Source: a virus
Strand: one strand, 5' to 3'
DNA: 64,000 nucleotides
IMG/VR virus record: IMGVR_UViG_3300003323_001224
Span: 1-64,000 of that record
This document shows, one piece after another, positions 3,950-49,341 of the stretch. The notes under the pieces were generated by a model, which was not told where the DNA came from, ran no database searches, and saw nothing but the letters and a program-made list of their open reading frames with translations. How positions within the stretch are numbered: the first letter of the stretch is position 1; each line of letters begins with the position of its first letter. Made by a program: the position numbers and the translations under genes.

Positions 3950-4377
3950 TATTTTAGCGTTTTAAAAATTGAAACATAATACTGCTCCAGGTATTTCCAG
4001 ACCGCATCCGATCCTTCCCGTACGAGCAGATCGAATACGGGTTCGGCTTGCAGATCGCTCCCATCCCCAAAGCACTTGCCACCAATCCATTCGCATTCAT
4101 GGAAGGGATGATCTTCTTCGTAATCATTTAAAGGAAGGGGGGAATGATAACTCAAAAAAGCGCCTTTTGGCCGAATGGATTTTCTTGCTTGCCTATCATA
4201 ATCCAACGACTCTATAAAAACATGGGGGAGATACCAATTAGTAAAAGCCGTAAAAGATACTGCACCTAAATCGCCTTTGAGCACCATAAATAAAGAGCAA
4301 TCACCTATGCCATAGTTCTTGCCAGGATTAGGATCGCGTTTATCCCATGCGGGTGATATTTGAATGATGCGTTCCAT
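3949..4377 (-). CDS. hypothetical phage protein
   Basis: Translationally coupled ORF. Confidence 0.55.
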   Translation of the reverse strand: MERIIQISPAWDKRDPNPGKNYGIGDCSLFMVLKGDLGAVSFTAFTNWYLPHVFIESLDYDRQARKSIRPKGAFLSYHSPLPLNDYEEDHPFHECEWIGGKCFGDGSDLQAEPVFDLLVREGSDAVWKYLEQYYVSIFKTLK

Positions 4378-4732: not shown

Positions 4733-5049
4733 ATATTAAAGTATTTAATGACATTATTCTCACCTTCAGGAACGAAACCGCGTTTTTCGATAAGATGCTT
4801 TTTGAATGGTTGGTTAAAAAATTCCATGATACGGAGGTTTCGTTTATCTCGCTTACAACTAGCTTCAAACCATTCGAGCACATCTTCAAAATGTCCATTT
4901 CCAGGTGTTCGGTTAAAAATGGCAATGATATCATACGAGGTGCCGGAATCATCATAGAGACCATAACAGGTTCCCACACGGAAAGAAATGCATCCAGTCA
5001 AAGAATGGTATGATGCTTCAAAATCCAAATTATGAGTAGTCCTGAACAT
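4729..5049 (-). CDS. hypothetical protein, possibly GNAT-like
   Basis: RTPGNGHF...LIEKRGF resembles GNAT motifs only weakly. Confidence 0.35.
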   Translation of the reverse strand: MFRTTHNLDFEASYHSLTGCISFRVGTCYGLYDDSGTSYDIIAIFNRTPGNGHFEDVLEWFEASCKRDKRNLRIMEFFNQPFKKHLIEKRGFVPEGENNVIKYFNI

Positions 5050-5193: not shown

Positions 5194-6015
5194 TTATTTC
5201 ATCAGTCCTACATATTCATCTCTATATTGCTTCATCCAAGTATGATCATCATGCGGATAGATTGATTCGAATAAAGAGAAAATCCTATTAAAGTTTTCCT
5301 CTGTGTACCCTGGACGGGGTAGATGCGCATCGATGATATCCGGTGCAACTACCCAGCCATCCCGGTCAGCGCGGCGGGCCGCAAACTGCGTTCCAGGCTT
5401 GGCACGATCATGCTCTATTATGAGATCCGTCATGGCTGAAAGATGCTGGTAGGCGGTCTCCTGGTCCTTCGCCCAGTAGTTACCCCTAAAATGCTCCGCT
5501 TCCAGCTCGCCTAAAAGATCATCCAGGCATTTTTGCAGGATGCGTCCATTGATGCGCATAAAACTGCGCCAGCCAACAGCCGGGGCAATGATGTAACACA
5601 TAGGTACCTGTCCTTCAGGAACCAAATCAATACCTATCACATTGATCCAACCAGTATAATCGAATTGCTGCCAATATTCCTCGTTAAATACGCACATATC
5701 GGCATCAGAAGTTATTAGTATATCCGTTGGATCGATTTTGGGTATGGCTGCCGCATATAGGCGGGCGCACTGCGCATAGGTTGCTTGTTTATGCGGCGGA
5801 GCGCTAAATCGAAAAAAACGGGTTGTCGGTGCTATTTTGCTGCACCAACCATTAGCAAAGCCTAAACGTAATATTTCACCATCCGTCATTGCTGACGGCA
5901 TATCCGGGAATATTATAATACTGTCAATTCCCAGCTTATACCAGCTATAAACAGCAAAAGGAAGATTAAAGGCATACAGATCATCCGCCGTGCAACTCAG
6001 GATCGCTTTCATCAT
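5194..6015 (-). CDS. putative GT-A fold glycosyltransferase
   Basis: ITSDADM DxD motif, WAKDQE, and position in the glycosyltransferase cluster. Confidence 0.5.
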   Translation of the reverse strand: MMKAILSCTADDLYAFNLPFAVYSWYKLGIDSIIIFPDMPSAMTDGEILRLGFANGWCSKIAPTTRFFRFSAPPHKQATYAQCARLYAAAIPKIDPTDILITSDADMCVFNEEYWQQFDYTGWINVIGIDLVPEGQVPMCYIIAPAVGWRSFMRINGRILQKCLDDLLGELEAEHFRGNYWAKDQETAYQHLSAMTDLIIEHDRAKPGTQFAARRADRDGWVVAPDIIDAHLPRPGYTEENFNRIFSLFESIYPHDDHTWMKQYRDEYVGLMK

Positions 6016-25250: not shown

Positions 25251-27254
25251 ATGTATTATCCCATTGAGAACGGGACCGTGGAGGTCATACAGGACTATCC
25301 CTGTCAACTGCCCCCTGTTGGCTATGGAAAGAATAGGCTGACGGGCGAAGTGGAATACGTAGGTATTGTAAAGACCGATGCAAAGAAGGAAAAACAAAAA
25401 TGGAAAAGGTTTGAACTGCCGAAGGATTATGAGAAGAAAAAGAAACAGGAAGAGCAGCGCCAAAAGGAAGAACCAGATCATTATAATCCTGACCTGGAAA
25501 AGATCCGGACACAACATTGGAAATACCGCCTCTGCGGTTTTTGGTTATATATAAATGGCATACCGACCTACATTCCGCCGTCCTATTATATGTATCTGCA
25601 ATGGTGCCCGCTGGATATTGGTTACCCGGCTTATCGTGATACGGATAGGAGATTTTTTTATGTATGGGAATATTGCGTGGAAGATCCGCGCTGTGCTGGT
25701 CTGATTGATATTGAACGCCGACGGATGGGAAAAACCTATAAGAGCGGGTCTATATTACTAGACAGAACATCGATAGCCAGCCACCACCACGGCGGTATAC
25801 AAAGCAAGACAGGACAGGATGCCAAGGCGGTCTTTTTAAAGACAGTAGTTCCGTTTTTTAAAAAATACCCTGATTTCTTTCGGCCAGTATTTGATCAATC
25901 CAAGGGTATGTCACCGACCACTGAGCTAAGGTTTTTTCAGACCAGTATTAAAGGCAAACGCGCCAGCGAGATCGTCGATGCGCCTGAATTGGAATCATGG
26001 ATTGATTGGGGAACAGCAGAACCTTTTCATTATGACGGATCGAAGTTGAATACTTATGTGTGCGATGAATTTGGCAAAACCCTTGAATCGAGCGTTGTTG
26101 ACCGTTGGGATGTAGTCCGCTTCTGTTTAGATCAAGATGGAGATTGGTGCGGTAAAGCTCTCTTTACTTCTACAATAGAAGAGATGGAGAACGGCGGGGT
26201 AGATGCGAAAAAATTATGGGAAAATAGCAATCCCGCTGATAGAAATGAGAATGACAGAACCAAAACAGGACTATACAGATTTTTCTTACCTGCATACGAA
26301 ACGACATATTTTGATGAATATGGTATGCCAGAAGTTGAGAGAGCAAAAACTTTCTACCTGAATGAACGGGCGGGCTTGGTGAAGGACCCAAGACAGTTGT
26401 CATCTATCATTAGAAAGAATCCTTTCTCGATTGAAGAGGCATTTCGAATCGATGGAGATACGTGTTTATTCGATGCGATGAAATTAAATGATCAACTGGA
26501 TTTTTTGTCCTGGCGAGAGAACATAACAGAACGTGGAAACTTCGAATGGGAGAATGGAGAACGTTACACAAAAGTGGTTTGGAAGAAAAATGCGAACGGT
26601 AGATTTGAGATGCCTGTCGGTTTTCATTTCGACAATCCAAACGAAGTAAAAAAGATTAATGATCAGTTTATACCCCAGAATAATGTTCGGTTTGTATGCG
26701 GATGCGACCCTTTTAAATATGACCGCGTAAAAGATCAGCGCCGTTCCGATTGCGCGGCATTTGTATTCCAAAAATTCTCCCCAGGAGATGATACGTTTAA
26801 TGATTCGTTTGTTTGTAGATACAAACATAGGGCACCAACCACGGGCATGCAATATGATGATGTCATTAAGATGTGTTGGTATTTCGGCTGTCAGTGCCTT
26901 TTTGAATGCAATATCGATAACTGGAAAGAATATTTTAGGAATGCACATTGTTGGGCATTCCTGATGATCTTACCTGGAGAATCAGATCCGGGTCTTTACG
27001 CCGATGGAGGCGGTAAAACCCATCAGCTAATATGCGACTTGACTGAAGATTATATTGATAAGAATATTAAAAAGGTACTGTTTAAAGCGATGATTGAGGA
27101 TTGGTTGCTGTTTAAGTTGGACAAGACAACCGACTTCGATGAAACCATGGGCGCCGGCTATACATTGATTGCAGCTCGAAAGAAGCTCTACAGAAAAAAT
27201 GGAGATATCCAGCGTGACCTGACAGACTTTTTCAGAATTTATAAAGCAAGTTAA
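25251..27254 (+). CDS. terL: terminase large subunit
   Basis: Walker A RRRMGKT, Walker B YVCDEFGK, nuclease motifs GCDP and FDETMG. Confidence 0.9.
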   Translation: MYYPIENGTVEVIQDYPCQLPPVGYGKNRLTGEVEYVGIVKTDAKKEKQKWKRFELPKDYEKKKKQEEQRQKEEPDHYNPDLEKIRTQHWKYRLCGFWLYINGIPTYIPPSYYMYLQWCPLDIGYPAYRDTDRRFFYVWEYCVEDPRCAGLIDIERRRMGKTYKSGSILLDRTSIASHHHGGIQSKTGQDAKAVFLKTVVPFFKKYPDFFRPVFDQSKGMSPTTELRFFQTSIKGKRASEIVDAPELESWIDWGTAEPFHYDGSKLNTYVCDEFGKTLESSVVDRWDVVRFCLDQDGDWCGKALFTSTIEEMENGGVDAKKLWENSNPADRNENDRTKTGLYRFFLPAYETTYFDEYGMPEVERAKTFYLNERAGLVKDPRQLSSIIRKNPFSIEEAFRIDGDTCLFDAMKLNDQLDFLSWRENITERGNFEWENGERYTKVVWKKNANGRFEMPVGFHFDNPNEVKKINDQFIPQNNVRFVCGCDPFKYDRVKDQRRSDCAAFVFQKFSPGDDTFNDSFVCRYKHRAPTTGMQYDDVIKMCWYFGCQCLFECNIDNWKEYFRNAHCWAFLMILPGESDPGLYADGGGKTHQLICDLTEDYIDKNIKKVLFKAMIEDWLLFKLDKTTDFDETMGAGYTLIAARKKLYRKNGDIQRDLTDFFRIYKAS

Positions 27255-34075: not shown

Positions 34076-35320
34076 ATGGCAGATCTGTCACAATACATAT
34101 CTATTGCTGTAGTGTTGGACAAAAGCCAACCAAGCCCCATTTTTCGTATTGTTGATAATAGCAACTATCCGCTGGGTGTGGCGCAAACGATTGCGGGGAT
34201 CTTGAGTGTAACCCAGCCAGATAATATTACCATTCAGAATACGGATTTCTCACAGCCAGATATATACTGGAATACGAGTGCCCTCGTACCTGCTGATCTT
34301 GAGCTGAGATTAGATAATACGGGCAGCTTCCAAAGAGGAGGCAGCGGCTATCGTATTATTTATACAGTTCGGGCGCCTGGGTATGATGATACTATTTTGA
34401 CGAAAGTCTTTTCGCTTTCTTACACTCCTCCTGCCATTGTCATCACCAATAATTTTGATATATTCACGCCGGATCTATCCGTCCAAGATAGCACCAACTA
34501 CAACCAATTATCCCTAGATTTTATTTCCGTTGTCAGGGCGTGGTTAGCGAACATTATTTCTGTTGAAGGCACCACGCAAATCATCAGCGGGACCGATCAG
34601 GTGTTCGATCTCAATTATCTTGGGAGTTACTACGACTCCCAATATGATATTACCCTATCCATCACTCCTCAATGGCGCTTACAGGGGACATCCAATTTTG
34701 TTACGATCATCGATGAATTGGCCGATGACATTACGCTCTATGCGCAAATACCGCCTTCATTAGCTGACCTACAAGTAGACCTTGCGACACTCAAAAGTGA
34801 ACTTGATGCAGCAGTCTGTGATTGCAATTTATACCGCATATTGTTTGATCGATACAATTTAGCTAATTCCATCTATTCGCAATTGGTGGCAAGAGGACAG
34901 GCAGGGTCGTTGTCTGGATTGGATGTATATATATATCAACTGGAAAAGATTTTCAATAATAATGTTAACCCCACCTATGAAAACACGAATGAGATAATTC
35001 CGGCTTATGACTGGAATACCGGTGGCGGAGGCAGTGTGGCTTGGACCAATATAACCGGAAAGCCCAGTTCTATCACTGTTGAATGGGTCGTCGGGCAAAT
35101 GGGGTATCCTGGTGAAGGGGCGACTACTTACACGAATACTAATATGGTCAATGTACCCGTAAGTAGGATTTATGTTTTTCGAAACGGATTTCCGCAATTC
35201 TCCTCCAATCCGCCAGATGGAGACACCTATTACACTAAGAATCTTGCTGATAACTTCCTGACTTTTTCGGTAGCGTTGGGTCTAAACGAAAAAATTATCA
35301 TACTCATACTTCCTCTATAA
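34076..35320 (+). CDS. virion structural/tail hub protein
   Basis: Beta-rich, with the fibre-type motif VAWTNITGKP; contains a CRISPR protospacer. Confidence 0.5.
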   Translation: MADLSQYISIAVVLDKSQPSPIFRIVDNSNYPLGVAQTIAGILSVTQPDNITIQNTDFSQPDIYWNTSALVPADLELRLDNTGSFQRGGSGYRIIYTVRAPGYDDTILTKVFSLSYTPPAIVITNNFDIFTPDLSVQDSTNYNQLSLDFISVVRAWLANIISVEGTTQIISGTDQVFDLNYLGSYYDSQYDITLSITPQWRLQGTSNFVTIIDELADDITLYAQIPPSLADLQVDLATLKSELDAAVCDCNLYRILFDRYNLANSIYSQLVARGQAGSLSGLDVYIYQLEKIFNNNVNPTYENTNEIIPAYDWNTGGGGSVAWTNITGKPSSITVEWVVGQMGYPGEGATTYTNTNMVNVPVSRIYVFRNGFPQFSSNPPDGDTYYTKNLADNFLTFSVALGLNEKIIILILPL

Positions 35321-41995: not shown

Positions 41996-43363
41996 TTAAA
42001 ATTTCCTTGAAAAATCATGCTCCATATTTCCTAGCATAAGGCCTAACCCATCCTTTAAATATTCTTCCGTCATGCTGGGTGTAGCATGCCCGCAGTATTG
42101 TTGGATAAGCGCAATAATAACCCCCCCCATGTACATATGGATGCAGCGGGTATGCTTCCAGGAATAATTAGTTAATTTAGGTGAAAATCCTCCAGGCTCC
42201 CGTACTTCATCCCTGAATTTGTCGCTAAAAAAAGCGCGATTCGTAGGGACCGGTCCCGGTGGCCCATCTATACCAAAGATGTAGTAGTGACCCGGACAAT
42301 CCTTTAAACCCATTCTGATAAAAAGTTCTATCAGTTCCGGTTCCATGTGAATGAATCTGCCGCGCCCCTTTTTTGCCTTTTCGTCGGGAATCATTAATTT
42401 ATTTCGACCCCAAAGAATATTTTCCACTTGTAAGTTACGTGTTTCCTTATCAGGCCGGGTGCCCGTGTAGTATATTACCTCACTAAAATCATGCAGGTAT
42501 TTTCCCCAATAAGGGACAGCCAGAATTGCCTTTTTCACAGCCGGTATGATACTATCTTCAAAAGGAGTATGCCTGATCTTAGTTCCCTTCCTCATCAACT
42601 CGACACCTTCAGCAGGGCTTTTGCTTATAATCTGTAGTTCGTCTTTACAATAATTAAAAAATGTAACAAACTTTTTTACCTTATCATTGTATGTCAAAGG
42701 CGCCCATTCCTTTTCCTCTCTCTTTGCCGCGAGAAAATCTTCCAGGTCATCTTGCGTGAAGGTCGCAATATCATCATACCACTGGCTTTCTTCCAATAGC
42801 GTATTTTTAGCTATATGCTTTTTCAACAAATTCAAGGGCACTGCATATGACTTTCGGTTCACTTCATCATAGTGTTGCAAAAAAAGCTCACTGGCCGCAT
42901 TCAAGGTAATGACCTGCTTTTTAGCTTTCTTTTCTGCCTCTTGTTCGGCTAAGATCCTATTATACTCGTCTATCTCATATTGGAATGGGCTGAAGCCATT
43001 CTCTAGCTCTTTAAGCATGGTGGCCAACAGCTGGAGCGCAAATTCAGGGTCCTGCGCGACTCCTTTGAAAACGCGAAAACGTTCCCATTCTCCCGGCGCA
43101 TTGTGTCGCTGTTGCAATACGGGCGGTAGCCCAGGAGGCACCTTAAAATAGTATTCAATATACTTTTTCTTCCCCTCAACGAGCTTGGGCGGTTTCCAGG
43201 TTATGTATTTTCCCGTTGACACTTTTTTGGCAATTTCCTTTGTCAAAAATACGAACTTTTTGATTTTCAGGTCTTTGTTTTTTTTAGGGTTGATCGCGTG
43301 TATCAACTCGGCATTTTCGACTTCCGGAGTATTGCTGATTTTCAGCGCTTTAGATTTTTGCAT
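41996..43363 (-). CDS. int: tyrosine recombinase/integrase
   Basis: Catalytic motifs YYTGTRP (R), YSWKHT and CGH..SMTEEY (Y); start at MQKSK. Confidence 0.9.
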   Translation of the reverse strand: MQKSKALKISNTPEVENAELIHAINPKKNKDLKIKKFVFLTKEIAKKVSTGKYITWKPPKLVEGKKKYIEYYFKVPPGLPPVLQQRHNAPGEWERFRVFKGVAQDPEFALQLLATMLKELENGFSPFQYEIDEYNRILAEQEAEKKAKKQVITLNAASELFLQHYDEVNRKSYAVPLNLLKKHIAKNTLLEESQWYDDIATFTQDDLEDFLAAKREEKEWAPLTYNDKVKKFVTFFNYCKDELQIISKSPAEGVELMRKGTKIRHTPFEDSIIPAVKKAILAVPYWGKYLHDFSEVIYYTGTRPDKETRNLQVENILWGRNKLMIPDEKAKKGRGRFIHMEPELIELFIRMGLKDCPGHYYIFGIDGPPGPVPTNRAFFSDKFRDEVREPGGFSPKLTNYSWKHTRCIHMYMGGVIIALIQQYCGHATPSMTEEYLKDGLGLMLGNMEHDFSRKF

Positions 43364-43471
43364 GGTGATCTTTTTTAGGCGATTTTGGCAATTTTTTGAC
43401 AATTTTTCTGAGCCAAATCTACATCGAATTCGCCATTTCTGCAATTAAATCCGGAGGATTTTACAATTAGG

Positions 43472-45740
43472 GTTGTGAATTCCTTTTAAAATTGAACGCT
43501 CAGTAACTAGAATACAAACTGATGTTCAACCTTTACTGTTGTAATTACATTTACAAAAAGTGCATTCAACATTGATACATATTACGGCAAGCAACATGAA
43601 TGTTGTGACTTCCTTTTCAAACATATTATTTAGGGAGGGCAATAAAATAAGATGGATTATAAAGCATTATAGTCGTACTATCCTTAGTACGCTACTAAGC
43701 TTGCGTTGTGACTTCCTTGTTCAGTGGTTCAATATCTTGCGATCTTCTCTAAAAAACAACAGTCAATGAGTGGCCAAAACTCTGGCAGTTGTGAATTCCT
43801 TTCAAAATGGATTTTCCTACAACCCAAGCTGCGTAGGTAAACCTTCCTGTTGTTGTGATTTCCTTTTAAATAGATGCAGCCTACAATTCCCCTTCAACTA
43901 ACTTTCAAAGCCATATAACCATTTTCTCGTTGTGATTTCCTTTTAAATAGATGCAGCCTACAACTGGTGAGTAGGTTGTTGTTTCCGAGGAGCAGTTGTG
44001 ACTTCCTTTCAAAATTAAGCTTCCTACAGCCAACCTCCTCTATCCTTATATTCCTGAGTTGTTGTGACTTCCTTTCAAAATTGAGCTTTCTACAACAAAT
44101 GCTTAAAATTGGATTCCATAGCCATAGTTGTGAATTCCTTTCAAAATTAAGCTTCCTACTACTGGACAGGGCCTGGGGTAACAGGACATAGGTTGTGATT
44201 TCCTTTCAAAATTAAGCTTCCTACAAAGTATAGCTTTTTGGATATTTTTCACGGTAGTTGTGACTTCCTTTCAAAGGAAAGGTTCTTGCAACTTTCATAG
44301 GTGGGGTTTACATTGTTATCGAGTTGCGACTTCATTTCAAAAATTGAGGTTGATACAAATGGCGCCCCTGGACAAGTTCTTTGTCACCGTTGTGACTTCC
44401 TTTCGAAATCAAGCTTTCTACAACCCTAGCCCACATAGGCACGGGATACCATTGGTTGTGACTTCCTTTCGAAATTAAGCTTTCTACAACTCATTAATCC
44501 TGCCTCCGCTTATCGTTCCTGTTGTGAATTCATTTCAAAATTAAGCTTCCTACAACAATTATGGCAAATATATATAACGACTCCTAAGTTGTGACTTCCT
44601 TTCAAAATTAAGCTTCCTACAACCCCTGGCGATTAACGTGACGTCCCATTAATGTTGTGACTTCCTTTCAAAATTAAGCTTCCTACAACCAAACAATGTC
44701 ATACTTTTATAATTAACTCGTTGTGACTTCCATTCAAAATTAAGCTTCCTACAACTAAGTTCACGAACATCATATGAAGATAGGAGTTGTGACTTCCTTT
44801 CAAAATTAAGCTTCCTACAACCAGCCGACGGGCGGCTATTTAAATAGGTTTGTTGTGACTTCCTTTGAAAATAAAGCTTCCTACAACAGTCAGCCCAATT
44901 ATAAGAGATACACCTATGTTGTGACTTCCTTTAAAAATAAAGCCTCCTACAACTTACCAAAACCAGTGACAACAACGGGACGTGTTGTGACTTCCTTTCA
45001 AAATTAAGCTTCCTACAACAATGTTCGATCATTCCTTTTTTGAAAGTACGTTGTGACTTCCTTATAAGCTTCCTACAACCGGCGCATGGCATGGGTACGC
45101 AAATGAAGTGTTGTGACTTCCTTTCAAAATTAAGCCTCCTACAACACATCAGCAGCGCAGATACCGGCAATTGCCGTTGTGACTTCCTTTCAAAATTAAG
45201 CTCCCTACAACAAAAATGAAAAAGGTTTACAATGTCTCGTAGTTGTGACTTCCTTTCAAAATAAAGCTTCCTACTACGGTCGATGTTTTGATAAGTCATC
45301 ACTCATAGTTGTGACTTCCTTTGAAAATAAAGCTTCCTACAACTGTTGTGAGCAACTACGTATAGGCGTGCTCTGTTGCGACTTCCTTTAAAAATAACCT
45401 TCCTACAACAGCGTGCCCAAGATCAGCTACGACGCCAATGTTGTGACTTCCTTTCAAAATTAAGCTTCCTGCAACCAGCAACCAATCCTCAATCATTGCT
45501 TTGAAGTTGTGACTTCCTTTCAAAAATAAGCTTCCTACAACAGGACCTGATAACAGGCCACACGACATTACGTTGTGAATTCCTTTCAAAATTAAGCTTC
45601 CTACAACCGAGATCCTTTTCACGTCAAACGACCAGCAGGTTGTGAATTCCTTTCAAAATTAAGCTTCCTACAACAGGCCCAGTCCGCTCCCGTCCGTCAG
45701 CCGCGTTGTGAATTCCTTTCAAAATTAAGCTTCCTACAAC
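43472..45740 (-). CRISPR. CRISPR array, ~34 repeats of 36 nt, ~30-nt spacers
   Basis: Plus-strand consensus GTTGTGA(C/A)TTCCTTTCAAAATTAAGCTTCCTACAAC with ~66-nt period. Repeats degenerate toward 43472, so the leader is on the right and transcription is on the minus strand. Confidence 0.97.
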
Positions 45741-45834
45741 CTGTTTCGCTAGAAAGCACACCTCTCCTGCATTACAGCCTATATTGTCACAATAAAAATG
45801 CGAAACATTCTCGAAAAAATGAGAATAATAAATT
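45741..45834 (-). promoter_or_regulatory. CRISPR leader
   Basis: Largely AT-rich non-coding stretch next to the most uniform repeats. Confidence 0.55.
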
Positions 45835-45915
45835 AAAAAAAGGATTCAGGAGTGCTTCACGGCCTCCCGCTCAGGACGTACAACCGCCCCCTAATATTTT
45901 CAAAGAACTTGATGA
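45835..45915 (-). ncRNA. candidate tracrRNA/scaffold
   Basis: Two hairpins, a GUUGUA loop and a UGAAUCCUUUU tail complementary to the repeat 3' end. Confidence 0.5.
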
Positions 45916-45919
45916 GATT

Positions 45920-47014
45920 TTATTGTATCAAAAGTTCAATCCCAAACTTTTTGCATTTGTATTGTATCATGTTTATCAATCCATGATACGACCAGTTTCT
46001 TAACAAGAACTGATTTTTTGGATCTTTCGCTTCCTCCTCTTTCTCCTTCTGATCAACGAGAATCAATTTGCCGCATCGATATGCGACGCACAAATCTACC
46101 AATTTCTTACTATAACTGTGCAATTTGGTCTGCACATAATGTCTTTCTTCTTCAGAGAAACGTTCAGTGGCTTGCAGCTTCCGTTTTCTACCTTTGCCTC
46201 CTTTGTTGAACCGAGCGGCTCTTTGCGCTCTTCTTAGTCCCTCTTGTATACTAATTCTACCGTATAAGAACTCATCTTTGGTCCCGATGGATAATTCCTT
46301 TCTATTTACTTTGGCCACAATAGGTACATCCAGGCTGAGAGAAGCTGTCATAGCAACGTCCACATCCAAAACTACTGGTTTTTTTTCAATTTCAAAGACT
46401 GCTAATAAAAAAATTTTCTTTTTCTTCAACTGTATAGAACTATCGCAAAGAGAATGTATGCCTTTCAAAGCTTCCTCCATCAGCAACCGGTTATTGCTAA
46501 AGTCATAACCGAAATGCGTTCGAAACGGAATGCCCCACACTTCAAATTTGTAATTTTCGCTGTCTTCAGATAAAGACCAATTGCGCATAAGAATAGTTGG
46601 CAGCGGCATTGGAATGTCTCGGCGATAGGTTCGCAAAGCGCGCTTTCCGGAAAAATATTCCTTCCGCTCCTTGCTAATGTTTGCTGTGACGAGGTTGTTT
46701 ATCGCAGAAACACTTGCCATTGGCGCCTCGCCCTTGAACTTTTTTGAATTTACCTGGTAGGTTGTATTGGGACGGCTCGTAGTTAATATCCCCTCTTCCG
46801 CTTTAATTCTATCCTTCAATGTGATTTTGAAATCATCATGAAGATAAAAGAATTCGGAAATATTTTCCTGAAAATATTGATGGGTGGCCGTGTGGTTAGC
46901 AGCCCTAAATATTATTTCATTCCATTTGCGCAATTTTGCATAATTATCTTTAAACTCTTTTTTATCAGAATCTATAAATAATTGAATTTTTCTTGTTATG
47001 ATATTTTTAGCCAT
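45920..47014 (-). CDS. cas12f: nuclease-dead Cas12f/TnpB-family RNA-guided protein
   Basis: ITRKIQL, GGKGRKRK, HSYSKKLVD..CGKL and LLRNWSY..IQYK..GI motifs. RuvC-I GxDLG is replaced by ASLSL, RuvC-II Glu by LILVDQ, and the protein ends before the zinc finger and RuvC-III. Confidence 0.8.
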   Translation of the reverse strand: MAKNIITRKIQLFIDSDKKEFKDNYAKLRKWNEIIFRAANHTATHQYFQENISEFFYLHDDFKITLKDRIKAEEGILTTSRPNTTYQVNSKKFKGEAPMASVSAINNLVTANISKERKEYFSGKRALRTYRRDIPMPLPTILMRNWSLSEDSENYKFEVWGIPFRTHFGYDFSNNRLLMEEALKGIHSLCDSSIQLKKKKIFLLAVFEIEKKPVVLDVDVAMTASLSLDVPIVAKVNRKELSIGTKDEFLYGRISIQEGLRRAQRAARFNKGGKGRKRKLQATERFSEEERHYVQTKLHSYSKKLVDLCVAYRCGKLILVDQKEKEEEAKDPKNQFLLRNWSYHGLINMIQYKCKKFGIELLIQ

Positions 47015-47106
47015 TAGGTATTATTTCGGGCAAAATATGCGAAATTAGTTACATTGGCAAATAAACTTCGATGTTAGCGGGGCAATTAAATAATTGAGAT
47101 AATCAT

Positions 47107-47872
47107 TCAATTTTTGTATTCTGAATTCGGCTTGACATCCTCCATCCCCATGAACTCATCAATAGGTTGGATAATGTATTTATCGTTGCTTATGATGTCG
47201 ATTAAAATAAGTGATTGACCCAATCGTTCTGATTTAAAATTGGTATGTCTTAGAGATCCCCTGATAGCACCCTGCGCTTCATTCAAATCCCAAAAGAAGA
47301 GACCTTTCCATATTCGGTGTGCATGCATAACAACAAATAGTTGTCCTCTTTTAGGCATTACTTTTTCTTTATTTCGATAGATTTCGGTCATCATTATTTC
47401 GTGGTTTTATTTGCTTCGTGTGCATTGTAAATAAATTTCACGGCTTCACCCGCGCATTTAATAAAATCGACATCAATAAATTTTTTGCCCATTGCGTGAA
47501 TTCTCCAGGTCGATTTTTTGCCAATTTGATATTTACCACTTCCTGGAGAACCATACTCCAATATAATCTTTAATCTATAAATATTGGCAACCGCTTCCAG
47601 CGCGGCAATTGCGTCTATTGCGGATGGACCTTTCATTAATTATCGCCGGCTTTTTCAATTTGATCATTCCATTTCACAAGCCCTGGCATGATCTGAGCCA
47701 AAGCATGGACGAGTTCTTTAGGATCTACTCCGGGTCCCAATACGACTCGATATTTGTCTTCGCCGAGTTCTTTCACAAGGCATAACATGGGCCATCCATT
47801 TGTTTGGTTGCACAATTCTTTTATGTTGCGCAAAATTTCGCTCGTCAGTTCTTTTCGTGTTTCTTCGGTCAT
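47107..47872 (-). CDS. three small coupled hypothetical ORFs (47107-47394, 47394-47636, 47636-47872)
   Basis: Overlapping stop and start codons. Confidence 0.5.
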
Positions 47873-48458: not shown

Positions 48459-49250
48459 TTATTTTCCGTGAATATATCCAAAGATCTTTTCAGCTGTTAG
48501 GCCAGACTGTACAACTTCAACTTCATTGGCTTTTGCCAAAGCCTCCCGCACTGACTCCTTAAGTTTACTAAGCCTATACAACATTGCCGCTCTATCGCGA
48601 TGGGAAATCTCACCGGAAAAATGCTGTACTGTCTGCATCCCCAAAACGACTTGCGTATCCTTAGAAGCTATTTGAGGCTTATAACCAGATCCATCCTTTA
48701 GCAGTTGAATATTTGGATCGGGGAGAATGTATGATTCCTTCAAGGTAGTTCTATTGGCACTTTCGAAAACTTCTGTTTCCCAAATATTTTCTGACTTCAT
48801 CTCGCTGTCGTTGGATCGCACCCATTTGATATCATCTCTCCGGACAGGTAGCGTTTCGTACATTTTTGATAATTCTTTCGAATCCAAAAATGACCGCAAG
48901 CGCAAAAGTTCAAGTGTCGTATACTTCCCCCAATCTTCGCCATCAACAATAAGATTGGCGGTCGCTTTGCCGGTGGCATTTGTCGCCTCAATGGCAAACA
49001 AATTTGTTATGTGATCGCCGCAGGTGTCCAGAAAATATTTGAGATACTCCGGCACTGAATTTTGTACCGGTTTGAATCCCCTTTTCGAAGGTTCATCTAA
49101 GTAATCGCCTTCTGCTTGATAAGTTTGCCGCACTCCCACGAAAATTTGGGACTTATGCTTATCAGCAAAAGTGGCTACATATTCCTTCAGCAATGCATTG
49201 TACTGAGTACCTGAATGTTCTGTTTTGGCAAGCAAAGCATTTTGTTTCAT
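48459..49250 (-). CDS. uncharacterised long helical-hairpin protein (possibly DUF7873-like)
   Basis: F.G..QTY, ATANLIVDG, LELLRLRSFL, ETLPVR, FSGEIS and ALAKANEVE motifs; start at MKQNALL. Confidence 0.6.
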   Translation of the reverse strand: MKQNALLAKTEHSGTQYNALLKEYVATFADKHKSQIFVGVRQTYQAEGDYLDEPSKRGFKPVQNSVPEYLKYFLDTCGDHITNLFAIEATNATGKATANLIVDGEDWGKYTTLELLRLRSFLDSKELSKMYETLPVRRDDIKWVRSNDSEMKSENIWETEVFESANRTTLKESYILPDPNIQLLKDGSGYKPQIASKDTQVVLGMQTVQHFSGEISHRDRAAMLYRLSKLKESVREALAKANEVEVVQSGLTAEKIFGYIHGK

Positions 49251-49267
49251 AATCCTTTTTTTTAATT

Positions 49268-49341
49268 GTTCCGCAACCACGGATCGAACGTGGCACTCCC
49301 TGCTTAAAAGGCAGGTGCTCTAACCACTGAGCTATTGCGGA
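49268..49341 (-). tRNA. tRNA-Lys(TTT)
   Basis: Anticodon arm CCTGC-CT-TTT-AA-GCAGG; GTTCGATCC. Confidence 0.85.

Follow-up and report, generated by a model that had tools for sequence, protein, structure and literature searches.

A candidate trans-acting guide-RNA scaffold between a nuclease-dead Cas12f gene and a 30-repeat CRISPR array in a phage genome

An important question raised by this phage locus is whether the 179-nt intergenic stretch which, on the minus strand, separates a 364-aa ORF from the CRISPR array that follows it encodes a tracrRNA, i.e. an RNA that acts in trans on the many guides of the array. By homology and covariation, the element in this stretch is a guide-RNA scaffold that most likely does act in trans on the array, as the sequence-only reading of the locus had proposed: positions 45835-45892, together with a few to ~25 nt upstream, would be a trans-acting tracrRNA of about 58-80 nt for the 30-repeat array, a reading to which we give a probability of roughly 0.8. 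It is well supported because a hairpin loop covaries with the repeat, the tail pairs better with its cognate repeat than with foreign ones and the part of the repeat concerned is nearly invariant. The window, i.e. the whole 64,000-nt stretch of DNA analysed, is part of a 76.6-kb IMG/VR virus record classified as complete by CheckV, and the runs listed as containing parts of the locus are three DNA runs of one root-metagenome study, with no RNA run among them.

The nuclease-dead Cas12f and its genomic setting

The ORF, dcas12f (45920..47014, minus strand), is intact and full length, and its product is the presumed binding partner of the RNA. It matches the NCBIfam model 'guided_TnpB', ending at model position 338 of 389, and aligns over its full length (residues 7-363) with PDB 9n9c, 'Nuclease-deactivated Cas12f' (365 aa; E 1.4e-91). 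An alignment with the active Cas12f 9nzo shows Ser in place of the RuvC-I Asp and loss of the RuvC-II Glu; the protein is also truncated at its C-terminus, ahead of the Zn finger and RuvC-III. It is not a typical Cas12f effector but, given the 9n9c match and the RuvC losses, by its sequence a member of the published nuclease-dead dCas12f family (PMC13472631; 10.1101/2025.06.10.658880).

In Bacteroidota, dCas12f pairs with an ECF sigma factor and drives RNA-guided transcription, using single guide RNAs of 85-105 nt that are encoded directly downstream of the gene and carry a 14-16-nt guide; its TAM is 5'-G, and the guide seen by cryo-EM has the paired regions P1-P4 (PMC13472631; 10.1101/2025.06.10.658880). 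The phage has no rpoE operon with dcas12f. Sigma70_r2 has no match in the 76.6-kb genome, where only a weak region-4 match occurs 19 kb away, and Pfam gave no match for the small ORFs that precede dcas12f. Further upstream lies a gene for a DUF7873 protein (48459-49280, minus strand), and directly beyond the array a phage integrase gene (41996-43444, minus strand); the carrier is probably a temperate phage.

In an IQ-TREE phylogeny of 115 proteins, rooted at the midpoint, the loci with a sigma factor gene upstream form one clade (SH-aLRT 98), and the window protein branches just outside this clade, next to other sigma-less proteins. The 57-row set of the tree in which it falls also includes two Chitinophagaceae loci without a sigma gene, as well as the viral, array-bearing loci L158 and L083. 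Hoffmann et al. (Nature 2026; PMC13472631) proposed that the single guides collapsed from an older crRNA/tracrRNA pair. The tree fits this proposal; since the root is a midpoint root and the window branch is long, the order of events is suggested rather than shown.

A conserved scaffold directly downstream of the gene

The stop codon of dcas12f lies at 45920-45922, and the candidate core of the tracrRNA, a dCas12f guide-RNA scaffold without a fused guide as recognised by a covariance model and RNAalifold, follows immediately downstream on the same strand, from 45892 to 45835. It comprises hairpin 1 (GGGGCG-GUUGUA-CGUCCU, 45873..45890), whose 6-nt loop GUUGUA (45879-45884) would be the short anti-repeat, i.e. 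the pseudoknot strand, hairpin 2 (CGGGAGGC-CGUGAA-GC-A-CUCCUG, 45847..45869) with a conserved GAGG...CACUC core, and, read directly from the sequence, the tail AAUCCUUUUUUU (45835..45846). This tail contains the long anti-repeat AAUCCUUUU, which runs into a U7 run, the likely 3' end and terminator. The hairpins and tail described earlier for the minus strand agree letter by letter with this sequence. Conserved scaffold sequence begins at ~45892, the 5' limit in the sequence-only reading having been 45915, and the stretch between the dcas12f stop and hairpin 1 (45893..45919) is a possible 5' leader or promoter.

Both hairpins are present in the minimum-energy fold (ViennaRNA), but the fold energy of the hairpin region is no better than that of shuffled sequence (z -0.05 to -0.84), and the case for the scaffold therefore rests on comparison. 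An Rfam scan of 43500-47500 returned nothing relevant. We compared 160 homologous loci, 80 bacterial and 80 viral, and in most of them two hairpins followed by an A-rich tail come after the stop codon. The RNAalifold consensus of 29 diverse scaffold copies consists of the same two hairpins: 94.8% of the cells in this alignment are paired and 11 of the 14 pairs show compensatory changes, values that were reached by none of 500 shuffles and compare with pairing of only 35-53% in slid controls. The stem of hairpin 1 contributes five compensatory pairs out of six and hairpin 2 six out of eight, with 97% of its cells paired. The homologues from which this covariation was drawn are at most 51% identical to the window protein, more similar proteins (P0002, 89%; P0003, 67%) being known as well. 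Close relatives of the phage were found neither by protein nor by repeat pattern among viral and metagenome contigs.

The covariance model (R1) built from the 29-copy alignment matches 45833-45892 with 52.9 bits (E 1.4e-13), i.e. the window element scores as well as intact copies. In the ~160 loci the model finds more than 320 scaffold copies, every one of them on the strand of the gene. Across the 76.6-kb phage genome it gives no second scaffold match of note, and the last 12.7 kb of the genome contain no additional scaffold or repeat handle. We attribute to chance a weak match (13 bits, E 0.07) at 4733-4781 of the minus strand, which falls within the 3' end of an ORF. On the strength of conservation, covariation and the model match, the element is a genuine guide scaffold of the dCas12f family, and the comparison across loci shows its two hairpins to be real and conserved.

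Predicted pairing with the repeats and separation from the array

The array (from 45740 down to at least 43788, minus strand) has 30 repeats of 36 nt with spacers of ~30 nt; 27 of the repeats lie within nine mismatches of the consensus, and three are more degenerate. The 3' end of the repeat reads GAAAGGAA[G/U]UCACAAC. Over the 27 repeats, the 14 positions of the 3' handle AAAGGAA-TCACAAC contain only two mismatches, compared with 43 in the 20 positions at the 5' end, and the handle is retained even in repeats with eight or nine changes elsewhere. Its sole variable position, 29 (G/U/A), is the predicted unpaired base between two helices, and the handle is predicted to be the tracrRNA-binding part of the repeat. 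On its own, the repeat has only a weak fold (-3.6 to -4.6 kcal/mol), comparable to that of shuffled sequences, and is therefore unlikely to be a self-sufficient handle of the Cas12a type. Its 5' end (e.g. 45735-45740) starts with GUUGUA, identical to the loop of hairpin 1, so that within the pre-crRNA it can pair with the repeat's own 3' ACAAC; it would compete with the tracrRNA for ACAAC until the 5' part is trimmed.

Two predicted pairings would connect the scaffold with this handle. The loop GUUGU is complementary to the repeat's ACAAC, giving a predicted pseudoknot of 5 bp, not 6, in the window. The tail UCCUUUU is complementary to GAAAGGA, with three extra pairs in the AAUUC variant of the repeat that are lost in the AAGUC variant, to which most repeats belong. 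The long anti-repeat of the window is short, with 7 bp, or 10 bp when a bulge is allowed. The duplex of the tail with GAAAGGA(AUUC) has an energy of -7.1 to -9.7 kcal/mol; among shuffled handles 1-2% do as well, among random 14-mers from the window 4%. Taken alone, this duplex is modestly above chance; it becomes convincing only because the tail occupies the homologous position.

Much of the argument for these pairings comes from the family. In a MAFFT alignment, made with no structure fitting, of 26 natural stretches from scaffold to first repeat, 90% of the cells are paired when the loop columns of hairpin 1 are matched with the six columns that end the first repeat, whereas slid controls for the whole structure of the same 26 modules reach 32-50%. 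In five of the six pseudoknot pairs both sides change, with counts such as UA 19 and CG 7, GC 17, UA 8 and CG 1, or AU 14 and GC 7. In addition to GUUGUA/CACAAC in the window, combinations of loop and repeat end include GCUGUA/UACAGC, GUUGGA/UCCAAC, GUUGCA/UGCAAC, AUUUUG/CAAAAU and AUUUCG/CGAAAC. Because the register of the long anti-repeat shifts by 1-2 nt between clades, it was assessed by duplex energies and permutation. Among 32 unique modules, the cognate long anti-repeat duplex comes to -8.9 kcal/mol versus -4.5 for non-cognate combinations, and the pseudoknot has 5.2 contiguous pairs versus 4.0; neither cognate value was reached in any of 10,000 permutations. The two-part anti-repeat, i.e. 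a loop pairing with ACAAC plus a longer tail duplex, is thus backed in both its parts by covariation across loci. Such covariation had been named beforehand as one way to check the candidate, and it is found in the stems (the 11 of 14 pairs given above) as well as in both pairings with the repeat.

How, then, are scaffold and repeat brought together? In the window, the U7 run and a leader of 94 nt (45741..45834, by direct reading), which carries no fused repeat handle, lie between the scaffold and the first repeat; no ACAAC partner occurs within 75 nt downstream of the anti-repeat, the gap to the array being scored as 92 nt. Since neither a guide of its own nor a repeat-type handle follows the scaffold, the window element is a split variant and not a single guide. 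A T-run of at least five directly follows the anti-repeat in 12 of the 19 scaffolds that lie at least 40 nt from their array (the window and several Sphingobacterium loci among them), but in none of the 36 that lie closer than 40 nt and in only four of 105 fused single guides. The U7 run and the handle-free leader fit a stand-alone RNA that would end at 45835-45841. A terminator scan gave no call because the T-run begins only 6 nt past the stem of hairpin 2; the run may still end the RNA. At the other end, a sigma-70-like site at 45945-45917 is a consensus match only, and in the sequences preceding 234 scaffold copies the Bacteroidota-type promoter box TTTG is not enriched at any particular position. 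In Flagellimonas loci, the stretch from hairpin 1 to the pseudoknot strand spans 66 nt, against ~75 nt for the published dCas12f scaffold (10.1101/2025.06.10.658880). By analogy, ~9 nt may precede hairpin 1 in the window, which would give a tracrRNA of ~66 nt.

Alternatively, scaffold, leader and array could form one precursor, in which the scaffold pairs only in cis with the first repeat and all other spacers stay idle. The published dCas12f family does use single guides (PMC13472631), and in the 36 related modules with an array less than 40 nt away and no T-run the first guide can indeed form in cis. In the window, however, the U7 run and the 94-nt leader stand between scaffold and array, the handle has been kept in all 30 repeats, and spacers resembling sibling phages sit deep in the array (at 45505, 44851 and 44322), all of which makes exclusive action in cis improbable.

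It is similarly improbable that the element is a relic, i.e. a former single guide which, deprived of its 3' half, would at most still terminate dcas12f, with the array being read by another effector, such as a host Cas protein that uses GUUGU...ACAAC repeats. Hairpin 2 with the U-run does resemble an intrinsic terminator, and the anti-repeat energy in the window is modest. Yet the 52.9-bit score is on a par with that of intact copies, the dcas12f ORF has stayed intact, the T-run class recurs in the detached scaffolds of other loci (the 12 of 19 above), and loop and tail match the handle of this very array within a family in which scaffold and repeat co-evolve. Finally, chance hairpins or an ordinary terminator unrelated to CRISPR, for which only the shuffle-like fold energy would speak, are extremely improbable in view of the E-value of 1e-13, the 11 of 14 compensatory pairs, the same position and strand beside homologous genes in ~160 loci and a terminator scan that did not call the site.

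We infer transcription, the RNA ends, crRNA processing, protein binding and the biological role of a trans-acting tracrRNA as follows. The RNA would be made either from a start of its own just past the dcas12f stop codon or from the 3' end of the dcas12f transcript, would end at the U7 run and would supply two protein-binding hairpins. The 3' end of the crRNA repeat would contribute the other half of the scaffold, via GAAAGGA:UCCUUUU in the long duplex and ACAAC:GUUGU in the pseudoknot with the loop, so that tracrRNA and crRNA together would rebuild the four paired regions of the published single guide. A dCas12f dimer carrying this RNA pair would then bind matching DNA without cutting it.

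Split and fused guides, and possible uses of the array

Bacterial sigma-linked loci, those of Flagellimonas for example, show the fused form: the scaffold runs on into ...CACUCACU-AAAUGC-loop-GCAUAUACAAC, after which comes a guide that is conserved between species. Within this fused guide, the tail pairs with the downstream strand, and the loop CUUGUA has its complement in the closing UACAA. Many viral loci and the window differ in that their scaffold ends behind the anti-repeat tail and the repeats of the array that follows terminate in a matching handle. Cutting the single guide inside its third helix would yield exactly the arrangement of the window.

Other loci show further arrangements. 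In the sigma-linked Sphingobacterium loci L007, L018, L021, L022, L024, L025, L026 and L036, scaffold copies that end ...AAAUACCCUUUUUU lie 60-260 nt upstream of arrays whose repeats end ...AGGGUAUACACAAC. By their sequence arrangement, these copies look like tracrRNAs inside sigma-linked loci, for which published work reported no tracrRNA. In the viral loci L107, L105, L110, L111 and L096, the array starts 2-30 nt after the scaffold, with no T-run; here the first repeat can pair in cis as a single guide with a long loop, later repeats would need pairing in trans, and this type of locus is intermediate between the fused and the split form. The closest viral homologue, L158 (51% identity), has identical scaffolds at 4120-4179 and 5336-5395, each with its own array after ~76 nt, whereas the window has one scaffold.

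Overall, the window element shares much with the single guide of the sigmaE-dCas12f systems: a homologous protein (E 1e-91) with the same truncated 365-aa architecture, a position right after the gene, a compact scaffold with a two-hairpin core and, on addition of the repeat handle, the same set of four paired regions. It differs in that its RNA stops after the anti-repeat at a U-run, that the guide and the other strands of two helices would come in trans from a 30-repeat array, and that the genome lacks the sigma factor and belongs to what is probably a temperate phage. Hoffmann et al. detected no tracrRNA-like species in the sigma-linked systems that they tested (PMC13472631). The same study contains a cluster of array-linked, rpoE-less dCas12f genes, which appears only in its Extended Data Fig. 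1a,b, where RNAs preceding the arrays are labelled 'putative gRNAs' (PMC13472631). Like the window, this cluster has a dead Cas12f next to arrays and, in the intergenic stretch that precedes the array, a covarying RNA; its treatment there is bioinformatic only and describes neither a role in trans nor carriage by phages nor spacers against sibling phages.

Cas12f1 also uses two RNAs, which are joined by a long repeat:anti-repeat stem and a 5-7 bp pseudoknot repeat:anti-repeat (PMC11246509), and its effector is a dimer, as we propose for dCas12f in the window. However, the Cas12f1 RNA, ~200 nt in total (PMC12255294), has extra 5' stems, in contrast to the 58-nt core with two stems in the window, and its effector has a Zn finger, RuvC-III and nuclease activity, where that of the window is dead. 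The omegaRNA of TnpB and the guide RNA of TldR stand in an ancestral relationship, with the scaffold 3' of the gene and the guide at the 3' end (PMC13472631); unlike the window system, each of these consists of one RNA, which overlaps the ORF at its 3' end, with one fixed guide and no CRISPR array.

The sequence-only reading had argued that a scaffold of roughly 60-80 nt would be far smaller than a typical Cas12f tracrRNA and therefore attractive as a miniature DNA-binding tool. The size difference holds for the 58-nt core when set against Cas12f1, but compactness had already been published for dCas12f guides, and since programmable DNA binding by dCas12f has also been demonstrated (PMC13472631), neither the small size nor the value as a tool is new, and the window system opens no new class of tool. 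What it offers is a 364-aa DNA binder that could probably be multiplexed from an ordinary CRISPR array. In the literature searched there is no account of a trans-acting split form, of the U-run signature, of carriage by a temperate phage or of a 30-guide array; the main text of the terascale-clustering paper (PMC10910872) contains neither 'Cas12f' nor 'sigma', and a 'Cas12 hacker' preprint, which appears to concern a nuclease-active phage Cas12, was set aside. We thus regard the system as partly new, namely in its trans-acting form, its phage carrier and its large array.

The window presents a two-RNA version of a system known with single guides and, as far as sequence can tell, a crRNA/tracrRNA pair in working order, i.e. 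a 58-nt core with a co-evolving handle; it thereby provides a concrete example of guide-RNA splitting or fusing in evolution. With slightly more conviction than doubt, we take it to represent a natural two-RNA state of dCas12f in which a phage uses 30 guides for nuclease-free silencing of sibling phages, and array-linked dual guides to have preceded the collapse into single guides.

As to the use of the array, three spacers, at 45476-45505, 44822-44851 and 44293-44322, match the phage's own genes at 28, 28 and 27 of 30 positions, their targets being 27081-27110 (plus strand), genome positions 73264-73293 (minus strand) and 34953-34982 (plus strand), respectively. The 5' flanks of these targets are ACTG, TCTG and ATTT, i.e. 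two are 5'-CTG and one is 5'-TTT, and two of the three fit the published 5'-G TAM. The self-like spacers look as if they had been taken from sibling phages. Such near-matches to the phage's own genes make the binding and silencing of sibling phages by means of the dead nuclease the probable role of the system, which points to a use of nuclease-free CRISPR by phages, probably against related phages. The spacer at 44822-44851 differs from its target at genome positions 73264-73293 only at guide positions 11 and 20, so that its first 10 nt, beside the G flank, are identical to the phage's own sequence. Should no more than ~14-16 nt of the guide count, as in published dCas12f, this spacer might bind the phage's own genome and thereby contribute to self-regulation.
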